This document shows positions 2 to 59,200 of a stretch of DNA of 64,000 nucleotides, piece after piece (positions within the stretch are counted from its first letter, which is position 1; every line of letters begins with the position of its first letter). Location of the stretch: sequence record LC739534.1. One strand, 5' to 3'. The DNA comes from Escherichia phage phiWec181. Made by a program: the position numbers and the translations under genes. The notes beneath the pieces are model-generated. The model did no database searches, had not been told where the DNA came from, and worked only from the letters and a program-made list of their open reading frames with translations.

Positions 2-844
2 CTAAGCATGACGGATTTGGCAAACGAAGCACAGGTCAAAAGTTTGGTGGTAGAATGCAACCCTGATTTCATTATTCACTTAGCGGCAGAGAGTCATGTG
101 GACAACTCTATCAAAAATCCACGAGCTTTCATCGACTCCAATATCATCGGTACATATAATTTACTGGAAGCTGCGAGACTACTCCCAAGGAATAAGCTGA
201 AGATGTTTGTACACGTCTCCACAGACGAAGTGTACGGCGATATGGCAGACTCTGGCGCTCCCTTTACCGAAGAGACAGCATATACTCCTTCAAGCCCGTA
301 CAGCGCGTCCAAGGCGGCTTCTGATCATCTTGTGAAAGCTTGGCACCGTACTTATGACTTGCCTGTAGTGATAACTAATTGCTCCAATAATTTTGGACCT
401 TACCAATACCCTGAAAAATTGATTCCAAAAGTAATCACAAGCATCTTGACGAACAAAGAAATCCCAGTGTATGGTAAAGGTGATCAGGTACGAGACTGGC
501 TTTTTGTTGAGGACCATGCACGAGCTATTCTTCAGGTAGCTTCTGGCGGCGAACCTGGACAAACTTACAACGTAGGTACACGTAATCCTAAAACCAATAT
601 GGAGATCATCTATATGATTTGTGATTACATGGATGCCGTACACCCGCAAAGTGGAACCTACCCCTCTTCAAGTTTAATAACTTTTGTTGAAGATCGTAAA
701 GGACATGACTTGCATTATGAAATCAACCCTGCTAAGATTGAATCTGAACTGGGTTGGAGTGCAAACTCCACATTTGAACAAGACCTTTACTCTACGATAG
801 AGTGGTATTTAAACAACCCTCAATGGTGGAGAGAAAAGATTTAA
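2..844 (+). CDS. rfbB: dTDP-glucose 4,6-dehydratase (RmlB/RfbB), 5'-truncated at window edge
   Basis: Translation has HLAAESHVD and [13 protein letters not shown] (YxxxK region) typical of RmlB; N-terminal Rossmann part lies upstream of window. Confidence 0.85.
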
Positions 845-852
845 GGAGGGTT

Positions 853-1731
853 ATGAAAGGTATTATTTTGGCTGGAGGAAGTGGAACCCGCCTACATCCA
901 GTAACACGCAGTGTGAGCAAGCAATTGCTCCCTGTGTATGACAAACCTATGATTTATTATCCTTTATCAGTCTTGATGTTGGCAGATATTAAGGATATCT
1001 TAATCATCACAACCCCAGGCGATCAGGAAGATTTTGAGTATCTTCTTGGAGATGGATCTATGTTTGGGATAAAGATCACTTACGCAATGCAGTCTGAACC
1101 ACGAGGTCTTGCAGATGCTTTCATCATTGGTAAAGATTTCATTGGGGAAGATTCTGTTGCCCTTATTTTAGGGGATAACTTGTTCTTCGGACAAAGTTTC
1201 GGAAAACTTCTTATCCAAGCCAGCGAAATGGTGGATGTTTGGGGTGGAGCTTGTATCTTCGGGTATCTGGTGAAAGATCCTGAACGATTCGGTGTTGTTG
1301 AGTTTGGAAGTAATCGCCAAGCTATCTCTATTGAAGAGAAACCGGAACATCCTAAATCAGACTATGCTGTCACGGGTTTGTATTTCTATGACAACTCTGT
1401 TGTTCAACGTGCATTGGAAGTAACCCCTTCCGAGCGTGGAGAACTGGAGATCACAGATATCAATCGCAGCTACCTCGAAGACAGGAAGTTACAAGTTGAA
1501 GTTCTTGGAAGAGGATTCACTTGGTTGGATACAGGGACACACGCCAGTCTAATGGAAGCAGGTCAATTCGTGCAGACTATTGAGAACTGCCAAGGATTGA
1601 AGATTGCGTGCCTGGAAGAGATCGCTTTCAAAAAAGGGTGGATTTCTTTAGAGACTTTGGTGTATCATGGCAACTCATTGAAGAAAACAGAGTACGGGCA
1701 ATATTTGTTAAAATTAGCGGAGGGTAAATGA
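853..1731 (+). CDS. rfbA: glucose-1-phosphate thymidylyltransferase (RmlA/RfbA)
   Basis: N-terminal [12 protein letters not shown] sugar-nucleotidyltransferase motif; SD AAGGAGG upstream of ATG 853. Confidence 0.9.
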
Positions 1732-2288
1732 AAATAAAAGAATTAAGTATTCCTGGTCTGGTTGTCTTTAAACCTCAAGTTTACAAAGATGATCGTGGTT
1801 ACTTCACGGAGACGTTTAACGAGAAGATTTACGAAGAGGTTATTGGCAAACAAACGTTTGTTCAGGATAACCATTCATTCTCTACTTTAGGTGTTCTTCG
1901 CGGAATGCACTTTCAAGTAAACAATCCGCAAGGTAAGCTTGTACGTTGCACACGAGGTGAAGTTTTTGACGTGGCTGTAGATCTTCGTGAAGGTAGTCCA
2001 ACCTTCGGACAATGGGAAGGTGTGATTCTTAGTGGGCGTAACAATAAACAGTTTTGGATTCCACCTGGCTTTGCACATGGTTTTGTTGTAACCTCTTATG
2101 AAGCCAACTTTGAATACAAGTGCACCAACTACTACGATCCGGCATCTGAACGTAGTTTGTTGTGGAACGATCCTACTGTGAATATTGATTGGGGTTTTGA
2201 TATGATTTTCAATGATGAGAATTTTGTACCTATCATTTCGGAAAAGGATGCACAAGCTAAAACACTGAAGGAGCTTATGGAATCATGA
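1728..2288 (+). CDS. rfbC: dTDP-4-dehydrorhamnose 3,5-epimerase (RmlC/RfbC)
   Basis: RmlC-like cupin sequence ([22 protein letters not shown]); start overlaps rfbA stop (ATGA). Confidence 0.85.
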
Positions 2289-3127
2289 AAACATATTTAG
2301 TATTGGGTGGTAATGGTCAATTAGGTCAGGCACTGCGTAAAGTGGTGCCGGAGAATGTGACTTTGGTGTATCCAGAAAAGCGTGTAGATATCACCAGTTT
2401 CGAAGCTGTAAGAAAAGCGATCATGGACACCCCAAATATTAACGGTGTTATCAACTGTGCGGCATACACTGCGGTGGACAAAGCAGAGACAGATGTTGAT
2501 GCAGCTATGGCTGTAAATTTACACGGGGCAGCTAATATTGCTGCCTTCTGTAAGGCTTGGGATATTGACATGGTGCATATTTCTACTGACTATGTGTTCA
2601 ACAGCGATAAACCGTTGTTCCATCAGGATGAACCCAACCCTATCAATGTTTACGGGTTATCTAAAAGTTTGGGTGAAGCTGCTGTTCGTGGTATCTACCA
2701 TAAAGCTTTTATTATCCGCACGGCTTCTGTGTATAGCGAGTTTGGTAACAACTTCCTGAAGACTATGGTGTCTCGTTACAACGATGGTCAAAGAGACTTC
2801 TCGGTAGTTGCAGATCAAACATCTCGACCAACTTATGCCCCAGATTTGGCTAAGATGATTTTCCAAGTGTTGGAAACAGGATATAACACCCGTACTTTGC
2901 ATTACGCTGGGAACATCACTGTTTCGTGGCACCAGTTCGCAAAAATGATATTGACACGTATGCCTGAATCTGTTATTATACACCCGACCTCTGCTGCAAC
3001 CTATAATTCGGCAGCGATGCGACCAGCAAAGTCTATACTAATTACGTCTGGTTGGAACGAACCTTCAAGCGTCGGACAAGGTATTGAAGAATCTTTAGCA
3101 GTATTACTTAATAAGGAGAGAGCATGA
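2285..3127 (+). CDS. rfbD: dTDP-4-dehydrorhamnose reductase (RmlD/RfbD)
   Basis: N-terminal LGGNGQLGQAL dinucleotide-binding motif, RmlD-like length; ATGA overlap with rfbC. Confidence 0.8.
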   Translation: MKTYLVLGGNGQLGQALRKVVPENVTLVYPEKRVDITSFEAVRKAIMDTPNINGVINCAAYTAVDKAETDVDAAMAVNLHGAANIAAFCKAWDIDMVHISTDYVFNSDKPLFHQDEPNPINVYGLSKSLGEAAVRGIYHKAFIIRTASVYSEFGNNFLKTMVSRYNDGQRDFSVVADQTSRPTYAPDLAKMIFQVLETGYNTRTLHYAGNITVSWHQFAKMILTRMPESVIIHPTSAATYNSAAMRPAKSILITSGWNEPSSVGQGIEESLAVLLNKERA

Positions 3128-3384
3128 ATTTTGTAATTTACGGCAAACCAAATTGCCAGTTCTGTGAAATGTCCAAACAACTCTTAACTATGCGTGAAAA
3201 AGAGTTTGAATATCTGACATTAGATCAGGACTATGATTTTGAAGTGATGACTCAAGCAGTGATCGCAGCAACAGGAATTGCACCTCGCACCTTCCCGCAG
3301 ATTTTTGTGGAAGAGCTTGGAGCAGTAACCCACGTAGGCGGTTTTACCGAACTGCGTGATTTCATGGCTCAAATTGCGGAGTAA
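3124..3384 (+). CDS. glutaredoxin/thioredoxin-like protein (NrdC/NrdH-like)
   Basis: 86 aa with CQFC redox motif near N-terminus, same layout as T4 NrdC thioredoxin; ATGA overlap with rfbD. Confidence 0.65.
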   Translation: MNFVIYGKPNCQFCEMSKQLLTMREKEFEYLTLDQDYDFEVMTQAVIAATGIAPRTFPQIFVEELGAVTHVGGFTELRDFMAQIAE

Positions 3385-3547: not shown

Positions 3548-4051
3548 ATGGCTAAAAAAGTAGTAGATGAGTTTGACATGTTGGCTGTTGATGAAGGACT
3601 GAAGCTGACTGTTTACCCAGACACCTTGGGATATTGGACAGTCGGCATTGGACACCTCTTAACTAAAAAGAAAGATAAGGCGGAAGCTATTCGTATTCTG
3701 GATGCTCTTGTTGGTCGCAAGACTAACGGAGTTATCACAGAGAAAGAAGCCCGTGCTATCTTTGCTGACGATGTTGAAAAGGCGAAAAAACAGATTAAAA
3801 ACAGTTCCATTCTTGCCCCAATTTATGATAAGGTGAGTGAAACCCGTAAACTGGCAATCATCAATATGGTGTTCCAGTTGGGGTTAACAGGAACGGAAGG
3901 CTTTAAAAATAGCTTGACTTTAATCAGTAATTCGTACTATACTCAAGCTGGTAAAAACATGAGAGCCAGTAAATGGTACTCTCAAACGCCAAACCGTGCA
4001 GAACGAGTAATCAAGGTTCTAACATCTGGGACTCTTGATTCTTACAACTAA
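3548..4051 (+). CDS. e: T4-type lysozyme (endolysin, GH24 muramidase)
   Basis: MLAVDEGLKLTVYPDTLGYWTVGIGHLLTK...ITEKEA...INMVFQLG...SKWYSQTPNRAERVI aligns along whole length with T4 lysozyme. Confidence 0.9.
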   Translation: MAKKVVDEFDMLAVDEGLKLTVYPDTLGYWTVGIGHLLTKKKDKAEAIRILDALVGRKTNGVITEKEARAIFADDVEKAKKQIKNSSILAPIYDKVSETRKLAIINMVFQLGLTGTEGFKNSLTLISNSYYTQAGKNMRASKWYSQTPNRAERVIKVLTSGTLDSYN

Positions 4052-4088
4052 CAAAGGGGCGCAAGCCCCTTCTATAAGGAGTGCTACT

Positions 4089-4844
4089 ATGGGAAAAACA
4101 GCTACCGCTAAATCACCGCGCCAGAAGTTAGCTTCTAATGCGAAAGTAGAAAGTCGTTATGCTGCAAAAGCAGTTGGAAATGATGACTATCGTTTAGATG
4201 GGTTTTCACCAGAAGGAGATCAGCAGCAAATCGTTCAAAGTATGATCTGGAATGATCTTACAGTCGTAAATGCTCCAGCAGGGACAGGCAAGACTTCCGT
4301 GACTTTATGGAAAGCTTTGCAGATGCTTCGAGCAGGAGATTTCCGTAAGCTTCTTTTTATTAAAAACCCGACTGAAGTTGGTGATGATCAGATTGGTTTC
4401 CTTTCAGGAGATAAAACTGATAAACTGGCGGCGCACTACGAATCAACCAAACGAATCTTCCAGCAGTTTATGACTGCAAACAAATTAGAGAATGATATTG
4501 GTTCCGGTAAGATTGAACTTAATATCCCGAACTACCTACTGGGTGCTACCCTGGACAACACTATTGTGATCATTGATGAAGCACAGCTTATGTCTCCAGA
4601 AACATTAAAACTTCTGGTAGAGCGTGCAGGGATCAACACTCATGTTGTTGTTCTTGGAGATGTTCGTCAAACCTACGCTATCAAGAAGCGTGCAAACGGT
4701 TTGAAAGATCTTCTTGACAAAGTTGCCCCTGAAGGTGAAGATGGTGTTCGTGTCCCTCTGGTAGACTTTATCGGTTATGTGCAGTTAACCACAGATGACA
4801 ACAAACGATCTCGTTTGTCTAAGTTCATCACGGAAATTTATTAA
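4089..4844 (+). CDS. phoH: PhoH-like ATPase
   Basis: Walker A NAPAGTGKT and Walker B-like VIIDEAQ; SD AAGGAG upstream of ATG 4089. Confidence 0.8.
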   Translation: MGKTATAKSPRQKLASNAKVESRYAAKAVGNDDYRLDGFSPEGDQQQIVQSMIWNDLTVVNAPAGTGKTSVTLWKALQMLRAGDFRKLLFIKNPTEVGDDQIGFLSGDKTDKLAAHYESTKRIFQQFMTANKLENDIGSGKIELNIPNYLLGATLDNTIVIIDEAQLMSPETLKLLVERAGINTHVVVLGDVRQTYAIKKRANGLKDLLDKVAPEGEDGVRVPLVDFIGYVQLTTDDNKRSRLSKFITEIY

Positions 4845-4883
4845 TAACAAAAAAGCAAGGATGCTTTATTAAAGGGAGGGTCG

Positions 4884-5381
4884 ATGGTACAGACAATTAT
4901 AGATCGGACTGGTATTGATGAATGTTACCAAACTGGGCTTGTGAAGCCTAACGAGTTCCGACAGATTTGCGTGAATCATATTGAGAAAGAAATTGCACTA
5001 ACTTTGGAGAACCTTACTCTCCGAGACAAGCTGTCAATGTTTGTGGCTTGGTGTAAAGGTGAAGATTGGTTATTGGCCCATTTTCAAGAACTTTCTGATA
5101 GTCAAGAAGGCTTATATGAATGTATAATAGGAATAGCTGGCTCCAATCCTGAACTTCTCCATTTGGAAGAAGAAGAGGCGAAGTTATTGTTCTTAAGCAA
5201 CATGTTCAATCGTAAAGCATTGCTTGTTCGTGAGTGTAGTGATCTTTTAAATCATCCACTGGCGATCACAAACGAAATACTGGTTGACAAAGAGACATTA
5301 CGTGCGATAGACTATCTGCGCAAGTATGTCAACGGCGGGAAAGCAGTTCTTAAAACATTAACAGAGGAGGAAGCAGAATGA
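4884..5381 (+). CDS. hypothetical protein (165 aa)
   Basis: ORF with SD GGGAGGG upstream; no recognisable motif. Confidence 0.5.
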   Translation: MVQTIIDRTGIDECYQTGLVKPNEFRQICVNHIEKEIALTLENLTLRDKLSMFVAWCKGEDWLLAHFQELSDSQEGLYECIIGIAGSNPELLHLEEEEAKLLFLSNMFNRKALLVRECSDLLNHPLAITNEILVDKETLRAIDYLRKYVNGGKAVLKTLTEEEAE

Positions 5382-6067
5382 CTACAATTATCGCAACCAA
5401 AAACAAGATCCTTAGCGACGGTAAAGTAACTTTCGGTGGTCGTGTAGATTCAACCAATTTCAAGAAAGTACGTAAGATTGGGGATTATCTCGTAGGTGGC
5501 GCAGGGCGTTTGACTTCGGTATTAGCTTTCTTCCAGTGGTTCGAACAGAACCTGCAATGTGAAGCGGCGCGTGAGGCAGTGCCTGGGTTGATGATCAGTT
5601 CTAACCCTGATCGTGAAGATGAAGAGTTTATTGCTCTCGTTGTTCACCCAGACGGACGTATTTTCCTGCATGAAGGTAATGATCCTACTCGTGCATACCC
5701 AATCGACGAAGAATACTACGCAGTAGGTAGTGGTTCCGATTTCGCGCTCGCAGCACTGGACGGCGGTGCTTCTCCAGAAGCTGCTATGGAGGTTGCCAAG
5801 AAGCGTGACGCATACTCCGGTGGCGAAACCTTCGTTGAAGAATTAGATGAGATCATTGAACTGACTGACGAAGATCTCGAAAACTTCACCAAACAAGAAC
5901 TGATCAACCTGCTCAAGTTTGGTGATCCTTCTGGTGAAGAAACTCCTCGTGACGTGGCAGGTGACGAGACGGTAGAAGAAGAGGTTGCTGTAGAAAAAGA
6001 CTTGACTTCTAAACCGGAAAATATTAATCTCGTAAACGTAGCGGATTTCGACAATCCCGCTGCTTAA
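5378..6067 (+). CDS. HslV-like N-terminal-nucleophile peptidase with acidic C-terminal extension
   Basis: Starts MTTII (Thr after Met), KVRKI and AVGSGSDFALAAL resemble HslV MTTIV/KVRRL/AIGSGG; ~50 extra acidic residues at C-terminus. Confidence 0.6.
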   Translation: MTTIIATKNKILSDGKVTFGGRVDSTNFKKVRKIGDYLVGGAGRLTSVLAFFQWFEQNLQCEAAREAVPGLMISSNPDREDEEFIALVVHPDGRIFLHEGNDPTRAYPIDEEYYAVGSGSDFALAALDGGASPEAAMEVAKKRDAYSGGETFVEELDEIIELTDEDLENFTKQELINLLKFGDPSGEETPRDVAGDETVEEEVAVEKDLTSKPENINLVNVADFDNPAA

Positions 6068-6073
6068 TAAAAC

Positions 6074-6096
6074 TGCCCCTTCGGGGGCATTTCTTA
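6074..6096 (+). terminator. rho-independent terminator
   Basis: GCCCC-TTCG-GGGGC hairpin followed by TTTCTT directly after CDS stop. Confidence 0.6.
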
Positions 6097-6112
6097 CACA
6101 GAGGAGATTATT

Positions 6113-6550
6113 ATGTTGAACGTTCCTGTTAAATTCGTCGATAGCTGTGTTAATGCTTACCAACAAACTTGTAAACGTGCCTCAAACTGTTTGCAGTCTT
6201 TGATTCAAACGCGGTACGTGATCCAAAAGAAAAGAAAGTGGTTTGGTAAGGATTCTTATAGTGTTAATGCGTTTGGGGAGTATCAACTCCAATATGACGA
6301 TAACATGCAGCACATCTTAGAGTTTTTACTGATAAAAGATAAAATCTCCCCTGCGGATTACCAGTTACTTAAATTCTACGATCAGAGTTTGTCTATTGAG
6401 GAAGTTATTGAAGATATCCTTTCTCGTAAGACAGATAAGAACACTATTGGTATTACAAACTTAGAGATGCAATTGCTTAATGAGATCTTTTTGTTTGTGG
6501 AAGATGAGTCTGTAACTAAGGAGGAGCTTTTAAATGGCTTTAAGCTATGA
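6113..6550 (+). CDS. hypothetical protein (145 aa)
   Basis: ORF with SD GAGGAG upstream. Confidence 0.5.
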   Translation: MLNVPVKFVDSCVNAYQQTCKRASNCLQSLIQTRYVIQKKRKWFGKDSYSVNAFGEYQLQYDDNMQHILEFLLIKDKISPADYQLLKFYDQSLSIEEVIEDILSRKTDKNTIGITNLEMQLLNEIFLFVEDESVTKEELLNGFKL

Positions 6551-7043
6551 TCGTCCAGAGTCCGATTACTATCCGACTCCGCAAAAAGCGATTAACTCGT
6601 TATTTAGCATTATTGATTTTAAAAATTTGAAAGAGGAAGGATTTACATTTGCAGAACCGTGTAAAGGACAAGCAGCGGCTATTTACCGTCACTTCCCTGA
6701 AGGTTCTCAGTATTGTGAGCTTGAAGAAGGTAAAGATTATTTTAGTCACGTATGGGAAAATCGTCCCGACATTATAATCACTAACCCCCCGTTCAAGCTG
6801 GCATTAGAGTTCTTGGAAAAGAGCTTGAAAGAAGCAGACGTATCAGTCTACCTGCTTCGCTTGGGATTCCTTGAGTCAAAGAAACGTCGAGCGTTTCATC
6901 AAGAAAACCCACCTACGAATTTGATTGTACTCTCCGAACGTCCTTCGTTCGTAGCGGGTGGAACAGATAAGACAGCGTATGCTTGGTACGTATACGATCC
7001 AAAACAAATTTTGGGTCTAACTCAACCATTTTATTTCGTTTAA
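6534..7043 (+). CDS. putative DNA N6-adenine methyltransferase (small, NPPF motif)
   Basis: IITNPPF (motif IV (D/N)PP(F/Y)) preceded by FAEPCKG AdoMet-binding-like motif and DYYPTP. Confidence 0.5.
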   Translation: MALSYDRPESDYYPTPQKAINSLFSIIDFKNLKEEGFTFAEPCKGQAAAIYRHFPEGSQYCELEEGKDYFSHVWENRPDIIITNPPFKLALEFLEKSLKEADVSVYLLRLGFLESKKRRAFHQENPPTNLIVLSERPSFVAGGTDKTAYAWYVYDPKQILGLTQPFYFV

Positions 7044-7053
7044 GGAGCACACT

Positions 7054-7290
7054 ATGGCTAAATTTATTATGACCGTTTCTATTGATTTTGATGATGAGGA
7101 CGGAGGCATTAACTTAGGTATTGCTCAGAACCTGGAAGGGGATTTGAACCCGACAGAAGCAGCTATGGCGGTATTCTTTAAAGATGCCATAACAGCCACA
7201 GCAACGCATTCTGCAAATCAAACTGTAGATTACGGTAGCATGGTTCAAGCCTTGGTTGATGCTCAAAACGGTGAAGATTGGGATGATTAA
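7054..7290 (+). CDS. hypothetical protein (78 aa)
   Basis: ORF with SD AAGGAG upstream. Confidence 0.45.
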   Translation: MAKFIMTVSIDFDDEDGGINLGIAQNLEGDLNPTEAAMAVFFKDAITATATHSANQTVDYGSMVQALVDAQNGEDWDD

Positions 7291-7493
7291 TGGCTTACAA
7301 TTATTATTGCGTTTACGCAAATGAAGCAAAGAAAGGCGACACTGGCACTAATGTCTATGCAGAATCAGAAATACATGCAAAAGAAATTGGTGCGATCCTT
7401 CTGTCACGTTGGACAGGTGGTAACTATTCTGCTGCGGATTTGTTCGCAGAAATGGATGACACCATCCAAGAAGATACCATCACCACAACCTGA
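7290..7493 (+). CDS. hypothetical protein (67 aa)
   Basis: ORF start overlaps previous stop (TAATG). Confidence 0.4.
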   Translation: MAYNYYCVYANEAKKGDTGTNVYAESEIHAKEIGAILLSRWTGGNYSAADLFAEMDDTIQEDTITTT

Positions 7494-7515
7494 TATTGCT
7501 TGAAGTAGTTGGTAC

Positions 7516-7545
7516 TCTCCTTGTTTCGGCAAGGAGGGTATTTTT
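7516..7545 (+). terminator. rho-independent terminator
   Basis: CTCCTTG-TTTCGG-CAAGGAG hairpin followed by GGTATTTTT. Confidence 0.5.
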
Positions 7546-7557
7546 AAGGAGGAAATT

Positions 7558-7749
7558 ATGCAGGAGAATGAAGAGATAGTTGTTAAAAAGTTCCCGACAC
7601 GTACACAGGCAGTCAACTTTGCCTCTGATTTGCTTTTGGATGTGGAAGGAGTTCTCATTAGACATGAAGGGGATTCCTGGAATGTCTCTTATAATGTAAA
7701 CAGATCAATTATATATTTAGGAGAAGAGAACTTCTCTCGTATAGAGTGA
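7558..7749 (+). CDS. hypothetical protein (63 aa)
   Basis: SD AAGGAGG 5 nt upstream of ATG. Confidence 0.45.
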   Translation: MQENEEIVVKKFPTRTQAVNFASDLLLDVEGVLIRHEGDSWNVSYNVNRSIIYLGEENFSRIE

Positions 7750-7763
7750 TCGAAGGAGCAATT

Positions 7764-8336
7764 ATGCGTTCTACTTACACAGGTAAGATTAATTCTGGTA
7801 TCATTTTAGCAGCAGCAGGAATCATCAGCAAAACTTTCAAAGTGGCAAACCTACCAGAGTGTGTAGATTTTGACCACGTATTCAATCCATTAAATCCTTC
7901 TCGTTGTGTTGTTCGTAGCAACGTTGAGAATCCAAATGAGAACTTGTTTTATGTAACATCACCTTCACAAAGTATTCTAAACCAAGTGGAGGCTAAAATT
8001 ATTACCGAAGGTAGTTATTTCTCATTGCTACCTTGTAAATCGGTGGAGATTGAAGATAGTATCACCTTCGCAAATAACTTGGTCTTGACCATGTTCATGG
8101 TTTCTGATAAAGACTGTGGAGACGATATGGTTTTAGCTGTAAGGAATGTTTATGACACATTGGGTATTGCTTATAGCTGTAAGTTGTGCGATGATTATAA
8201 ATCTTGTTCAGACTTTTACATAAATGGTGTTCGGGTATGCCGTGTTGAATCCTACTGGGTGCAAGACACATACATAACAGTAGCGAACGTGATCAATGAA
8301 CCTATGTTCAGCCACGCTTTAGCGTTAATCATTTGA
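7764..8336 (+). CDS. hypothetical protein (190 aa), Cys-rich C-terminal half
   Basis: SD GAAGGAG upstream of ATG 7764; ORF-track start 7746 lacks SD. Confidence 0.5.
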   Translation: MRSTYTGKINSGIILAAAGIISKTFKVANLPECVDFDHVFNPLNPSRCVVRSNVENPNENLFYVTSPSQSILNQVEAKIITEGSYFSLLPCKSVEIEDSITFANNLVLTMFMVSDKDCGDDMVLAVRNVYDTLGIAYSCKLCDDYKSCSDFYINGVRVCRVESYWVQDTYITVANVINEPMFSHALALII

Positions 8337-10804: not shown

Positions 10805-11081
10805 TGAAGTGAAAAGTTACGAAAGCAATTTCGTAAGCAATTGGGAAGCATGGGATGAGATGGGTGTTGGTGAACTCTATTTCTACAATGTAACCCTTCG
10901 TCCAGAATATCAACATCTCATTCCAGAAGGCACTGTGCAGATCGGTATGTTCATGTCTTCTCAAGACGGTGTTGTGCAGTTTGAGTTTTACTCTGACACA
11001 GAACAGAACGAATTCACTTATCGTGCATTCAATATCGTATTAGCTTTAGGAGAGGAGAAATTTTATGACGACGAAGTATAA
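10791..11081 (+). CDS. hypothetical protein (96 aa)
   Basis: SD GAGGAGGAAGAGA upstream of ATG 10791. Confidence 0.45.
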   Translation: MAEFNEVKSYESNFVSNWEAWDEMGVGELYFYNVTLRPEYQHLIPEGTVQIGMFMSSQDGVVQFEFYSDTEQNEFTYRAFNIVLALGEEKFYDDEV

Positions 11082-11262
11082 AACAGTAGCAGAAGCACTG
11101 AAAGCAGCACACGAAGCCATTGCAGAAGCTGAACAATTGGCTGATGAAACTGGCACAAGTTTTCACTTCTCTGTTGAATATGGGATGGGTGGTACTTATG
11201 ACCCAGAAGATGAGAACGAATACACTGGGACCAACTGGCACCCATCTTCCCTCGGTTGTTAA
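11065..11262 (+). CDS. small protein, paralog family G (N-terminal helix, C-terminal Cys)
   Basis: SD GGAGAGGAG upstream; shares architecture with the next two ORFs. Confidence 0.45.
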   Translation: MTTKYKTVAEALKAAHEAIAEAEQLADETGTSFHFSVEYGMGGTYDPEDENEYTGTNWHPSSLGC

Positions 11263-11276
11263 TAAGGAGAAATAAA

Positions 11277-11495
11277 ATGAGTGATCGTAATGCACAAGCA
11301 TTAGCAGACAAAGCAAAAGAAATCATGAAGCTTGTGGATGCACTGGCAGCAGAAGCAGAAAAGGAAGGTTTCGGTCTTAGCTTAGAAAACAATACAATCT
11401 GTTTTGAAGATTGGCAGTCTTCTGCTTGCTATGGCGAAGCTGATGATGGTTTCACCGTTGACTCTGACGGTGTTTGGTATAGCAGTAATTGTTAA
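11277..11495 (+). CDS. small protein, paralog family G
   Basis: SD AAGGAGA upstream of ATG 11277; Ala/Glu-rich N-terminus, ends ...WYSSNC. Confidence 0.45.
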   Translation: MSDRNAQALADKAKEIMKLVDALAAEAEKEGFGLSLENNTICFEDWQSSACYGEADDGFTVDSDGVWYSSNC

Positions 11496-11504
11496 GGAGG
11501 GATC

Positions 11505-11774
11505 ATGTCAGAAGGTAGTGCCTTAATCAAGGCAAAAGTTAAAGAGATGGAAGAATCACAACAGAAGTTCCGCAACGAGATTGAAGAGCTTTGTGAGCAG
11601 TTCCAAGAACAAGCGTGGATCGGTGATTACGGGAATGGGGAAACTTACTACCCAACAGGAACAAACGCAGAAGAACATTATCTCACCTATATCTGCGGAG
11701 ACTATGATATTGAGATTGACGAAAACGGTCTGATGACCGAAGGTCTTTGGGTGTCTTCCTCGGAAATGTGCTAA
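11505..11774 (+). CDS. small protein, paralog family G
   Basis: SD AAGGAGGG upstream; ends ...WVSSSEMC like its neighbours. Confidence 0.45.
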   Translation: MSEGSALIKAKVKEMEESQQKFRNEIEELCEQFQEQAWIGDYGNGETYYPTGTNAEEHYLTYICGDYDIEIDENGLMTEGLWVSSSEMC

Positions 11775-53307: not shown

Positions 53308-53673
53308 TTAGTCCATCCACCAGTAGCCATAAACTGCGTCTGCGTCGATGAGTTTGTGTTTGTTGTTCCGCATGTAGTCTAAGATAAGTAGACGTTTATT
53401 GTATCTGGAGAGATTATGACCCTCTTTTCCGCCATAGTCAAAATATTTTGCAAGACTTTTACACTCAAACAAAATCAGTTCGGGAGTTTCTTCACATTGG
53501 TCTGTCTGGTACACTTGACGGATGATCATGTATACGTCATCGTCTTCCGCTAAGTGCTCTACTGGTCCACACCCAGCAGGAATAAATTCATAGTCCCATC
53601 GAATCAGATGTTTCTCTACTGCTTCAAAGAAATCCATTTTTTCGCTACGCATGATCTGAACATCAATTAACAT
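53308..53673 (-). CDS. hypothetical protein (121 aa)
   Basis: SD CAGGAGGAAAA upstream. Confidence 0.5.
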   Translation of the reverse strand: MLIDVQIMRSEKMDFFEAVEKHLIRWDYEFIPAGCGPVEHLAEDDDVYMIIRQVYQTDQCEETPELILFECKSLAKYFDYGGKEGHNLSRYNKRLLILDYMRNNKHKLIDADAVYGYWWMD

Positions 53674-54679
53674 AATTTTCCTCCTGTCTCATTATTCCAC
53701 CTGCTTGGTTGATAGCACTTAAGACAACAGCCAAATCCTCACGCAGGAAGGTTTCACTATGACCGTCTTTCATGTGCAACGCTTCCACACAGCCGATAGA
53801 CGGTAGGATCTGATCAGTCTTAGATTTTAGCTTACTCTCTAACGCCCTGCAAGCCTGGTAGGACGGCAGATCAAACAATGCTACACGTTGCATAAAGTAG
53901 TTATTATTTGCATTCTGAATCTTCAAACGTATATCACTATCCTTTGCAATCCCCAGCTTGAAAGCTCCCGTATCTTCTCCATACTCATCAAGGATAACGT
54001 TGATGTAAAATTCTTGCTGTGATCTGCCTTTACATTCAGAACAACCATTCCCACTTAGATACTTATTAGGTGTTATCGTTTGTTCTCCGTGCTCACTACA
54101 TAAATATTTAAACTTAGACATGGTTCCCACCTTACCAACGAACCCTATAAACTGGTCCCCTCGTTCCTGGCAAGCTTCAGTCATACGGAAAATCCATTGC
54201 GCAGGAGTGTAACGATGGTTTTTAGAACAACGGCAAGCAAGCAGCCCATCTCTAAGACTGCTCCTCGTTACTTCAAACCTACCGTTACACACGCCAGCCT
54301 TTACATATTCGTCATGAGAACATACGGAACACTTAACTATCCAATAAGCCGCCCATCCTTTACTATCTAATCTATCACTACGATAATACTCACGCGGAAC
54401 GTTATCAGGACACGCTTTGTTAAAGGTTGTGATATGGATTGAATCATCAATTAAACATGTTTGCCTTATTGCTTCCACCCTACAACCTTTACAACCACTT
54501 CCTATTTTAGCATTATCTATAGAAGTTGTTCTCCATTCCCCATGTATAGAACATTCACAGGTTAGTTTAGTGCGTGCCCCCTTCCATTCACCATGCCACC
54601 CCGTAATGGTCCACGGTTTATCCTGGTAAGCTTGTTCTATTTCTTCCTGATATTCCTCCCAACTTTTAGCCCTCATCAT
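53663..54679 (-). CDS. T5orf172-like (GIY-YIG-related) domain protein with N-terminal CxxC zinc-ribbon repeats
   Basis: Repeated CxxC pairs, then C-terminal KLGIAKD...R...KDGHSETF resembling T5orf172; paralog of CDS 58247..59200. Confidence 0.5.
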   Translation of the reverse strand: MMRAKSWEEYQEEIEQAYQDKPWTITGWHGEWKGARTKLTCECSIHGEWRTTSIDNAKIGSGCKGCRVEAIRQTCLIDDSIHITTFNKACPDNVPREYYRSDRLDSKGWAAYWIVKCSVCSHDEYVKAGVCNGRFEVTRSSLRDGLLACRCSKNHRYTPAQWIFRMTEACQERGDQFIGFVGKVGTMSKFKYLCSEHGEQTITPNKYLSGNGCSECKGRSQQEFYINVILDEYGEDTGAFKLGIAKDSDIRLKIQNANNNYFMQRVALFDLPSYQACRALESKLKSKTDQILPSIGCVEALHMKDGHSETFLREDLAVVLSAINQAGGIMRQEENYVN

Positions 54680-54716: not shown

Positions 54717-55856
54717 TTAGAACACGCTACTTAAGGTTGCAGATCGTGTAGTGGTTGGTTCCAGAACCACACGGAACGTATCCCCAGGTTTATCGCTCAC
54801 TACTACAATCTTACCACCTTCGATCAGGTCACACTTCAAACCTTCGGCAGTAGCTTTCAGGTCGATGCGTGGATCGCCATCATCATCCAGGATAACGTAG
54901 CTGCTATCTTCGAGAGGCTCCAGTTCTTCGTCTTTCACGGCTTCCAGGTAGATGTTCAGTTCACATGCACCAGACAAGAACTTGGTAGGAGTGAACTCAT
55001 GCCAGTTGTTGACCCAGTTAGGCTTGATAGCTTTACCGTTGACAACAATAGAGCTAATCGTCCAGCGTGCATCGTTACCCAGAGAGATACCCATCATCTC
55101 CAGACAGGTCTTGAACGTCATTTTCGGATAGAAGTTTAACTCTTCTACGATCCCTTGAATAACATCGAAAGACAGTTCAGTGCTAACATCCCACAAACGT
55201 TGGAAGCTTTCAACATGTTTGCGATTCTTCAGATTCTTGTCCAGGTAGTCCAGCATAGTTTCAATAGACAGTTTGTCGTAGTTGAAGCTATAGAAGATAC
55301 GGCTCGGACGGTTGACGAAGTATTCCGAGATGTATCCGCTGTTCTTTGTCAGCATGAACAGTTTGTTACCGCTACCTGTGCCATCCAGCAGAGTCAGCAG
55401 TGCTTCCTGATCTTCCTTCTTGGAATACACTTTGTCGAACTCATCGAACAGTACTACTGCGCGTTCAGAGATCTTACTCATGAACTCCAGGAAATTGGCA
55501 TCAGAATATGGCTGCGTTACCAGAATAGTTGGGATTCCCAGGTCTTCCGCTTCCAACAGAGTGTTACTGATCAGTTTTGCCAGCATTGTCTTGCCACTGC
55601 CTTTTGTACCCGACAACAGGACACCTGTGTTCTTACCTTCTTTACTACGACGAGCGAAGGTACGGATAACGTGGGCTGCACGTTCTTTGGTTTCCCCGTA
55701 CAGGCGATCAGGAATCGTGAACTTATCAGCGCGACTAAGAGAATAGTTACCATGTGGATCACAATTGACAGTCCAAACGCCAGCGGGGAGTTTATCAACC
55801 TCTACACCAAAATCTTTATTAACAATTGCAACATCCCCATAAACTGTGTATTTCAT
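54717..55856 (-). CDS. AAA+ family ATPase
   Basis: Walker A GTKGSGKT and Walker B VVLFDEFD; SD AGAGGAGAAAG upstream. Confidence 0.7.
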   Translation of the reverse strand: MKYTVYGDVAIVNKDFGVEVDKLPAGVWTVNCDPHGNYSLSRADKFTIPDRLYGETKERAAHVIRTFARRSKEGKNTGVLLSGTKGSGKTMLAKLISNTLLEAEDLGIPTILVTQPYSDANFLEFMSKISERAVVLFDEFDKVYSKKEDQEALLTLLDGTGSGNKLFMLTKNSGYISEYFVNRPSRIFYSFNYDKLSIETMLDYLDKNLKNRKHVESFQRLWDVSTELSFDVIQGIVEELNFYPKMTFKTCLEMMGISLGNDARWTISSIVVNGKAIKPNWVNNWHEFTPTKFLSGACELNIYLEAVKDEELEPLEDSSYVILDDDGDPRIDLKATAEGLKCDLIEGGKIVVVSDKPGDTFRVVLEPTTTRSATLSSVF

Positions 55857-58246: not shown

Positions 58247-59200
58247 ATGAAATACGAAGATTTTAAACAAATAGTTAAAGACGATGTGGTATTTGAGAAC
58301 TTACAGGAAGGTTGTGAAGTCTTAGGTTGGACAGAAAGAGATAGAAACTTTGCAAAAATATACGTAATACGTTGTAGTGTTTGTGCCAAAGACCCCGAAA
58401 TGTATGGAGATGGTCTTTTTACAGCTACAAAAGGGCGTTTAGTGAAAGGTCAGAAATGTTGCGCGTGCGCTGTATCCTTTAAATACAGTCAAAACCAACA
58501 CCTAATTCTGCTAAACAGGCATTTAAGTGTCGCAGGGTACAGCATAGTTTCTATTGGTGCTTGGGAGTGTTCTAAGACGAGAATAGAGTTTAGTTGTGAG
58601 AATGGACACACGAAGAACAGAACCCTGGCTCAAGCAAAGGTAGTAGAACCTTGTAAACAGTGTCTTGAAGAAGGCTGTACAAAACACAAACAAGATGAGG
58701 CAGAGGCAAAAATTATGAAGATAATAGAAGATAAATGTTTACCTTATGTATTTGTAGGGTGGGATACTTCTTACAAGAATGTAACTTCAAAATTCAACCT
58801 CATCTGTTCGGATCACGGTTTAAAAACAATAAGATACGCTTGTTTCCTAAATGGTCATTTTTGTAACGAGTGTTCTGGTAGAAATTGCCTAAGTCTTTAT
58901 TTATTAGGAGTTTATGATAGAGACTTGTTGGTAGGTTTAAAATTTGGCATCTCTCAGAGTCCAGTAAGAAGGGTTCAACAGTTAAATAAAAGGAACTTAT
59001 TTAAATGTAAAATACTACAGATTTGGACTTTTACATCACATGATCAAGCTGTACGGATGGAAACATTATTAAAGAACACATTGCGAACTGGAATATTTAC
59101 TAAAAGAGAGATGAAAGATGGTCATACAGAAACCACAGAAGTTACTAATTTAGAAACCATAATGGACCTTATGACCTCATCTCATGGATTGGTTAGTTAA
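58247..59200 (+). CDS. T5orf172-like (GIY-YIG-related) domain protein with CxxC repeats; + strand gene inside minus-strand block
   Basis: Repeated CxxC pairs, then C-terminal KFGISQS...R...KDGHTETT; own divergent promoter; SD AAAGGAGGAAAC upstream. Confidence 0.5.
   Translation: MKYEDFKQIVKDDVVFENLQEGCEVLGWTERDRNFAKIYVIRCSVCAKDPEMYGDGLFTATKGRLVKGQKCCACAVSFKYSQNQHLILLNRHLSVAGYSIVSIGAWECSKTRIEFSCENGHTKNRTLAQAKVVEPCKQCLEEGCTKHKQDEAEAKIMKIIEDKCLPYVFVGWDTSYKNVTSKFNLICSDHGLKTIRYACFLNGHFCNECSGRNCLSLYLLGVYDRDLLVGLKFGISQSPVRRVQQLNKRNLFKCKILQIWTFTSHDQAVRMETLLKNTLRTGIFTKREMKDGHTETTEVTNLETIMDLMTSSHGLVS

Follow-up and report, generated by a model that had tools for sequence, protein, structure and literature searches.

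An HslV-like N-terminal-threonine peptidase with an acidic C-terminal extension in Escherichia phage phiWec181, a member of the phage family PHROG 1040

Results

The peptidase gene and its surroundings

We analyzed a 64,000-nucleotide stretch of DNA from Escherichia phage phiWec181 (LC739534.1), hereafter called the window, in which an open reading frame at 5378..6067 (+) had been predicted to encode an HslV-like peptidase. The ORF was found exactly as predicted, and its product of 229 amino acids starts with MTTIIATK and contains KVRKI at residues 30-34 and GSGS at residues 117-120. The features assigned at the locus are as follows:

4884..5381 (+): upstream neighbor encoding a 165-aa, all-alpha protein (phrog_14834), a candidate partner by conserved adjacency only
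5364..5381 (+): translation initiation region, with the Shine-Dalgarno sequence GAGGAGG at 5364-5370, 7 nt before the peptidase ATG, as read from the sequence
5378..6067 (+): peptidase gene, complete ORF of 229 aa plus stop; PHROG 1040, proteasome-beta/HslV-like N-terminal-Thr peptidase
5378..5842 (+): Ntn-hydrolase core, residues 1-155, from the family alignment, the mapping to HslV and a pLDDT of 94-99
5843..5920 (+): conserved extension, residues 156-181, an acidic linker plus helices 164-169 and 172-181; pLDDT ~90
5921..6064 (+): disordered, fast-evolving acidic tail, residues 182-229; net charge -11, pLDDT 52-61
6074..6097 (+): terminator-like GC-rich hairpin TGCCCCTTCGGGGGCA followed by TTTCTT, starting 7 nt past the peptidase stop, by consensus match only

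The ATG of the peptidase gene (5378) and the TGA stop of the upstream gene (5379-5381) overlap as ATGA, suggesting that translation of the peptidase gene is coupled to that of its neighbor. The hairpin at 6074..6097 likely marks the end of the transcription unit. The peptidase gene is the last of a co-directional block consisting of dTDP-sugar genes, a glutaredoxin-like gene, a T4-type lysozyme gene, PhoH, the 165-aa ORF and the peptidase gene itself. Inspected by eye, the four co-directional ORFs at 8..3127 (+) resemble a dTDP-rhamnose-type pathway, with a dTDP-glucose 4,6-dehydratase, a glucose-1-phosphate thymidylyltransferase, a 3,5-epimerase and a 4-dehydrorhamnose reductase, and three of the four are annotated in related records (dehydratase/epimerase-type; rffG). 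These genes are an unusual cargo and may serve in DNA or surface sugar modification. The glutaredoxin-like ORF (3124..3384) follows them. Farther downstream, three tandem ORFs of 65, 79 and 89 aa at 11065..11774 (+) share a helical region at the N-terminus and end in W-x-S-S-x-C, and from their sequences they look like a local paralogue family.

Bases 4000-8000 of the window showed 100% identity to Escherichia phages phiWec179 and phiWec186 (Phapecoctavirus, Stephanstirmvirinae), ~97% to "Pseudomonas" phage PsgM04F and ~75% to phAPEC8-type phages. Whole-genome checks were therefore run on the 154,443-bp phiWec179 genome rebuilt around the window; an end-join check together with a comparison of coordinates suggested that the window departs slightly from phiWec179 in places other than the peptidase region. 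The peptidase is single-copy, as no second PHROG 1040/T1-family paralogue was found in the phiWec179 genome.

Gene order and dispensability

The 165-aa phrog_14834 ORF was the one consistent immediate neighbor of the peptidase gene. Its homologues, with 30-36% identity, were located directly upstream of the peptidase gene in three divergent contigs, in one of them with a 4-nt overlap. The order lysozyme-PhoH-small ORF(s)-peptidase was seen again in metagenomic phages with peptidases of only 45-54% identity and, more loosely, with additional genes in between, in phages of Vibrio and Aeromonas. This order is kept within the rV5/phi92-like superclade. It was absent from the Rhizobium, Caulobacter and Erythrobacter phage loci and is therefore read as inherited synteny, for which reason PhoH was rejected as a functional partner of the peptidase. 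At one of the loci, that of Vibrio phage 1.193.O, an IS605 OrfB/TnpB-type transposase gene (3767..4867 of locus L002) lies directly upstream of the peptidase gene, after PhoH.

In Escherichia phage VEcB (P0069), the N-terminal half of PhoH is fused in frame to the peptidase from residue 63 onward. The underlying deletion takes out the remainder of PhoH and the upstream ORF, along with the peptidase's catalytic Thr and Lys. Since VEcB was propagated with this deletion, the stretch of PhoH, upstream ORF and peptidase appears to be dispensable, at least in culture.

The location of the gene also bears on whether this peptidase, being phage-encoded, might be a head-maturation (prohead) protease. 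The gene lies in a nucleotide-metabolism/lysozyme/PhoH block ~35 kb from the head module, which has a candidate protease of its own between the portal and capsid genes (a match to phrog_3017). A prohead-protease role is therefore unlikely, and we regard it as extremely so.

A phage-specific clade of the proteasome-beta/HslV superfamily

The PHROG 1040 'peptidase HslV family' profile matched the protein with E=3.5e-59, residues 1-216 aligning to profile positions 14-229 of 277, and the Pfam Proteasome family (PF00227) matched with 25.5 bits vs a gathering score of 22.4, placing the protein in that family and its Ntn alpha-beta-beta-alpha fold. The best PDB sequence match was Thermotoga HslV (E=1.4e-8). 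A profile made from 67 sequences of the family matched HslV at E=6.5e-18 to 1e-15 and 20S beta5 at ~1e-14. An AlphaFold2 model of the monomer, computed on the 67-homologue alignment, had a mean pLDDT of 87.7, with 94-99 in the core. These family, profile and structure matches indicate a T1-family Ntn hydrolase that is roughly equidistant from HslV and 20S beta. On sequence grounds, the protein is a member of the proteasome-beta/HslV superfamily (MEROPS T1, PF00227) and falls in a phage-specific clade, listed as PHROG 1040. The original prediction of an HslV-like peptidase is borne out in fold, family and catalytic residues.

An exhaustive HMMER search detected homologues in 1,930 cluster representatives (50% identity) at E<=0.001, 111 at 1e-10 and 11 at 1e-30. 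Among GenBank phages, 193 records with a homologue were found by tblastn, 106 of them Escherichia; the homologue-bearing phages were dominated by those of Escherichia, Vibrio, Aeromonas, Klebsiella, Rhizobium, Caulobacter and Shewanella, with Pseudomonas also named. The same fold occurred in 46 viral structure clusters, including jumbo phages and a Gordonia phage. The PADLOC defense/anti-defense models gave no match.

Close relatives are already annotated as "peptidase HslV family", "ATP-dependent protease subunit" or "putative 20S proteasome". The orthologues from PsgM04F and phAPEC8-type phages, which belong to the same catalogued family, are labeled "peptidase HslV family", and an HslV gene without HslU has been remarked on in the Salmonella jumbo phage pSal-SNUABM-04 (PMC7823757). 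The phiWec181 peptidase is thus a further member of a known, catalogued phage family, in which both close relatives and orphan HslV genes had been noted before. Our search of the literature on the function of phage HslV-like proteins yielded annotation-level mentions only, with no functional study or biochemistry for any member. Unlike the phiWec181 protein, some other phage HslV-like proteins are short forms of 130-190 aa that lack the C-terminal extension.

Conservation of the catalytic residues

The N-terminal ~175 residues had been predicted to match HslV on the basis of a Thr right after Met, KVRKI and GSGS. The Met-Thr start and both motifs are present, but the Ntn core extends over ~155 residues rather than ~175. 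Within the core, the catalytic and structural set consists of Thr2, Asp14, Lys30, Gly40/Gly43, Ser118-Gly119 and Asp144/Ser147-Gly-Gly. T1, D17, K33, G45 and S124-G125 of E. coli HslV aligned with T2, D14, K30, G40 and S118-G119 of the phage peptidase. In the alignment of 67 homologues, which reach down to ~27% identity, T2, K30, G43, G117 and G119 were invariant, and D14, S118, D144, S147, G148 and G149 were at least 90% conserved. An MTT start was found in 188 of the 227 relatives collected. Near-invariance of the catalytic set is the pattern expected from selection, suggesting that the protein is likely an active N-terminal-Thr peptidase. By analogy with the biology of HslV, methionine aminopeptidase would expose Thr2 as the nucleophile.

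The same Thr nucleophile could in principle serve a non-proteolytic Ntn enzyme such as an amidase or a Connectase-like protein ligase. The residue set, including D-x-x-S-G-G, is that of the proteasome/HslV proteases, and the matches to HslV and 20S beta were much stronger than those to Connectase or other Ntn hydrolases, which makes a non-proteolytic enzyme improbable.

Search for an unfoldase

The absence of an HslU-like gene next to the peptidase, as first reported, was confirmed at the locus and extended to the window and the whole 154-kb genome: tblastn with E. coli HslU gave no match in the window or in the rebuilt genome of 154,443 bp. Around the annotated orthologue of PsgM04F, no AAA+ gene was found within 20 kb on either side (40 kb), and none adjoined the homologue in eight other phage loci. 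HslU-like genes of phages were found mainly in Erwinia and Salmonella jumbo phages, and only 4 of 164 records bore an Escherichia name. Some jumbo phages thus encode an HslU-like ATPase, unlike phiWec181.

A Walker-A scan identified eight ORFs, PhoH having been identified separately. Six of them were searched against Pfam, which revealed a UvrD-type helicase, a DnaB-like primase-helicase, a tail-fiber-like protein and one classical AAA ATPase; the remaining two of the six had no Pfam match, and one of these matched a PHROG exonuclease family. The AAA ATPase is encoded as follows:

54717..55856 (-): classical AAA ATPase, 379 aa; PF00004, phrog_2376; 49 kb from the peptidase

This protein might act in trans as the unfoldase of the peptidase. 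It was the sole PF00004 match among the Walker-A ORFs scanned with Pfam, and Walker A and B, an SRH-like segment and a further C-terminal domain were recognized by eye, but the canonical aromatic-hydrophobic-Gly pore loop was absent on the same inspection, and the gene is located 49 kb away on the opposite strand. Homologues of the ATPase were found in Enterococcus, Bacillus, Staphylococcus, Lactobacillus, Lactococcus and crAss-like phages and in several jumbo phages. The summary for the peptidase names none of the first six groups, and the Vibrio, Rhizobium and Caulobacter phages that it does name were absent from the summary for the ATPase. The distribution of the ATPase does not track that of the peptidase, and co-occurrence therefore lends no support to a partnership, which we consider to have little likelihood.

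The region of the AAA ATPase gene is flanked, on opposite strands, by two Cys-rich paralogous ORFs at 53663..54679 (-) and 58247..59200 (+), encoding proteins of 338 and 317 aa in which C-x-x-C is repeated and a common K-D-G-H-[ST]-E-T motif lies close to the C-terminus. Their sequences suggest that they may be mobile or homing-type genes.

Loss of the HslU-docking features of HslV

To place the peptidase relative to HslV, we compared it with the NCBIfam HslV equivalogs NF003964 and TIGR03692, for which it scored 32.4 bits vs a cut-off of 137 and 31.0 bits vs a cut-off of 157.75, respectively. It shares with HslV the N-terminal Thr after Met and the Asp/Lys/Gly/Ser-Gly catalytic set. It differs from HslV in that its core is ~20 residues shorter, with the H2 region deleted or non-helical, in that its C-terminus is extended by 74 residues absent from HslV, and in that it comes from a genome without hslU. 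Unlike the archaeal and eukaryotic 20S beta subunits, the phage peptidase has no propeptide and no accompanying alpha-subunit gene, and it scored 27.3 bits vs a cut-off of 224 for the archaeal 20S beta equivalog TIGR03634. BPH and Anbu are farther from the peptidase than HslV or 20S beta and so are not its closest relatives; they are cellular proteins without the acidic extension and its conserved helix motif, whereas the peptidase is viral. Judged by its sequence, the peptidase is HslV-like but is not an HslV orthologue. Membership in HslV fails on three tested features, and the label "HslV" on such phage proteins is to be read accordingly.

Three residues of HslV, K28, R83 and R86, are presumably also HslU contacts. 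In the alignment, K28 is replaced by Ser in the peptidase (S/N/Q/D in the family), R86 is variable, and the positions of A79, K80 and R83 fall inside an 11-residue deletion found throughout the phage family. The HslV residues known to accommodate the C-terminus of HslU are F54, F57, A79, K80 and Q114 (PMC6429459). Apart from the deleted A79 and K80, Q114 is replaced by Leu in the peptidase (Leu/Met/Glu in the family) and F54 by Leu, while F57 stays Phe. In the model, one long helix (residues 45-67) is followed by coil (68-83) where HslV has its second apical helix, H2, and the family consensus has two conserved prolines in the H2-equivalent region. The alignment and the model both indicate that the HslU-docking residues and helix of HslV are lost in the phage family.

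These results bear on the original proposal that the peptidase hijacks an unfoldase of the host. The peptidase would dock on the host HslU hexamer, replacing or supplementing HslV, so that ATP-dependent unfolding by the host feeds a chamber under phage control. HslV is the best match in sequence and structure, the phage has no HslU-type unfoldase of its own, and the H1 pocket position F57 is retained. Proteobacteria generally encode HslUV, and the hosts named by tblastn are all Proteobacteria, so a non-canonical interaction with HslU would be possible. Against the proposal, the residues that receive the HslU tail are replaced (Q114 by Leu) or deleted (A79/K80), the H2 equivalent is modeled as coil, and the scores fall far below the HslV equivalog cut-offs. 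The proposal is thus unsupported by the alignment and the model, and we consider it unlikely.

A two-part C-terminal extension

The peptidase had been predicted to carry a tail of about 50 highly acidic residues. The acidity is real, but the tail is not uniform: 74 residues follow the core, they form two parts, and only residues 182-229 are disordered. Residues 156-229 have a net charge of -17, and residues 154-201 constitute the second most acidic 48-aa segment among 270 phage ORFs, with 0.03% of such segments being as acidic. The PHROG 1040 profile spans the extension, indicating that the two-part architecture is the norm of the family and not a peculiarity of this phage.

The first part is characterized by the clade motif L-T-x-E-x-[LA]-x-x-[MLF]-[ST]-K-E-E-L-L-x-x-L-F-G. 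T163 was conserved in 48 of 67 sequences, E165 in 54 of 67 and K172 in 53 of 66, followed by E-E-L-L-x-x-L-F-G, and a loose form of the motif was detected in 105 of the 129 relatives with a tail of at least 30 aa. Elsewhere in the phage proteome, the search for [ST]K-E-E-L-L gave only one other loose match, and no wider motif family emerged. The downstream 145-aa ORF at 6113..6550 (+) (phrog_15078) ends in ...EDESVTKEELLNGFKL, which weakly echoes the peptidase motif T-K-Q-E-L-I-N-L-L-K-F (BLASTP E=0.07).

The second part evolves rapidly. Residues 182-229 showed 11-30% identity to most relatives and 64% to the closest one (P0001), compared with 53-92% for the core. The tails of homologues were almost all net acidic (-10 to -36). 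Two distant relatives, P0148 and P0169, have strongly basic C-terminal tails (net +12 and +13) in place of acidic ones. Longer relatives reach 379 aa, with additional C-terminal regions; a Pfam search of the long C-terminal extensions of ten homologues gave nothing significant, and an impression of SAP/HeH-like motifs was backed only by a Rho_N hint at E=0.39. The tail is thus a hallmark of the family with a defined motif, and it offers clear targets for truncation and mutation.

Acidic competitor or mimic tails occur in other phage proteins, and the extreme acidity of this C-terminus fits the suggestion, also made at the outset, that the protein is a decoy or inhibitor whose tail titrates host HslU, ClpX or another factor without cutting. 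The complete catalytic set, N-terminal Thr included, stays near-invariant over deep divergence, for which a pure decoy would have no need, and the HslU docking determinants are absent. A purely non-catalytic decoy is therefore very unlikely.

Discussion

A model for the phage peptidase

We lean toward the interpretation that the protein is a catalytically competent, ring-forming T1 peptidase that works without canonical HslU docking, its extension substituting for HslU. The peptidase would be expressed with the nucleotide-metabolism/PhoH gene block and not with the head genes, and it would assemble into a ring-shaped, self-compartmentalizing particle like BPH or like HslV, which forms a double hexameric ring. 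As the helix and the pocket residues that contact HslU are missing, its action would not depend on HslU docking in the canonical mode. The helical segment 156-181 might pack on the core or on a neighboring subunit and so replace the stabilization or activation that HslU provides, and the disordered acidic tails might project from the particle, where they could bring in basic substrates or partners or else regulate entry. The likeliest targets would be host or early-phage proteins, or peptides.

As a rule, proteasome-like peptidases rely on an unfoldase or activator, and we know of no activity for BPH and Anbu, the orphan relatives. Without a partner, HslV is a poor protease (PMC6429459). On both counts, a protease that dispenses with an unfoldase is not an obvious solution. 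In a large phage clade, the features for docking HslU have disappeared and a conserved module has been acquired at the C-terminus. If the phage peptidase is active alone, it would represent another mode of T1 peptidase activation and would point to a phage strategy for remodeling the host or phage proteome in infection.

How the extension might substitute for HslU is suggested by residues 164-170 of the peptidase, DEDLENF, the reading of the Escherichia-phage subclade, which resemble the C-terminus of E. coli HslU (...DEDLSRFIL). Segment 156-181 could be a built-in surrogate of the HslU C-terminal tail that holds the peptidase in its active state by inserting, in cis or in trans, at an interface between subunits. 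The product would be a constitutively activated, ATPase-independent mini-proteasome, in which the acidic tails, possibly together with the upstream protein, select basic substrates. We offer this version as speculative. The aromatic residue of DEDLENF is kept in the enterobacterial-phage subclade and is Met or Leu in the wider family, and the region is compositionally biased; the likeness to the HslU tail is therefore treated as a hypothesis and not as evidence.

In some other phages, two PHROG 1040 paralogues are adjacent, unlike the single copy described here. Aeromonas phage 4L372D encodes such a pair (4432..5885 of locus L003), consisting of a short protein of 183 aa, with GCG for GSG, and a long one of 294 aa with the acidic extension. 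From its sequence, this pair hints at hetero-oligomeric rings in some phages.
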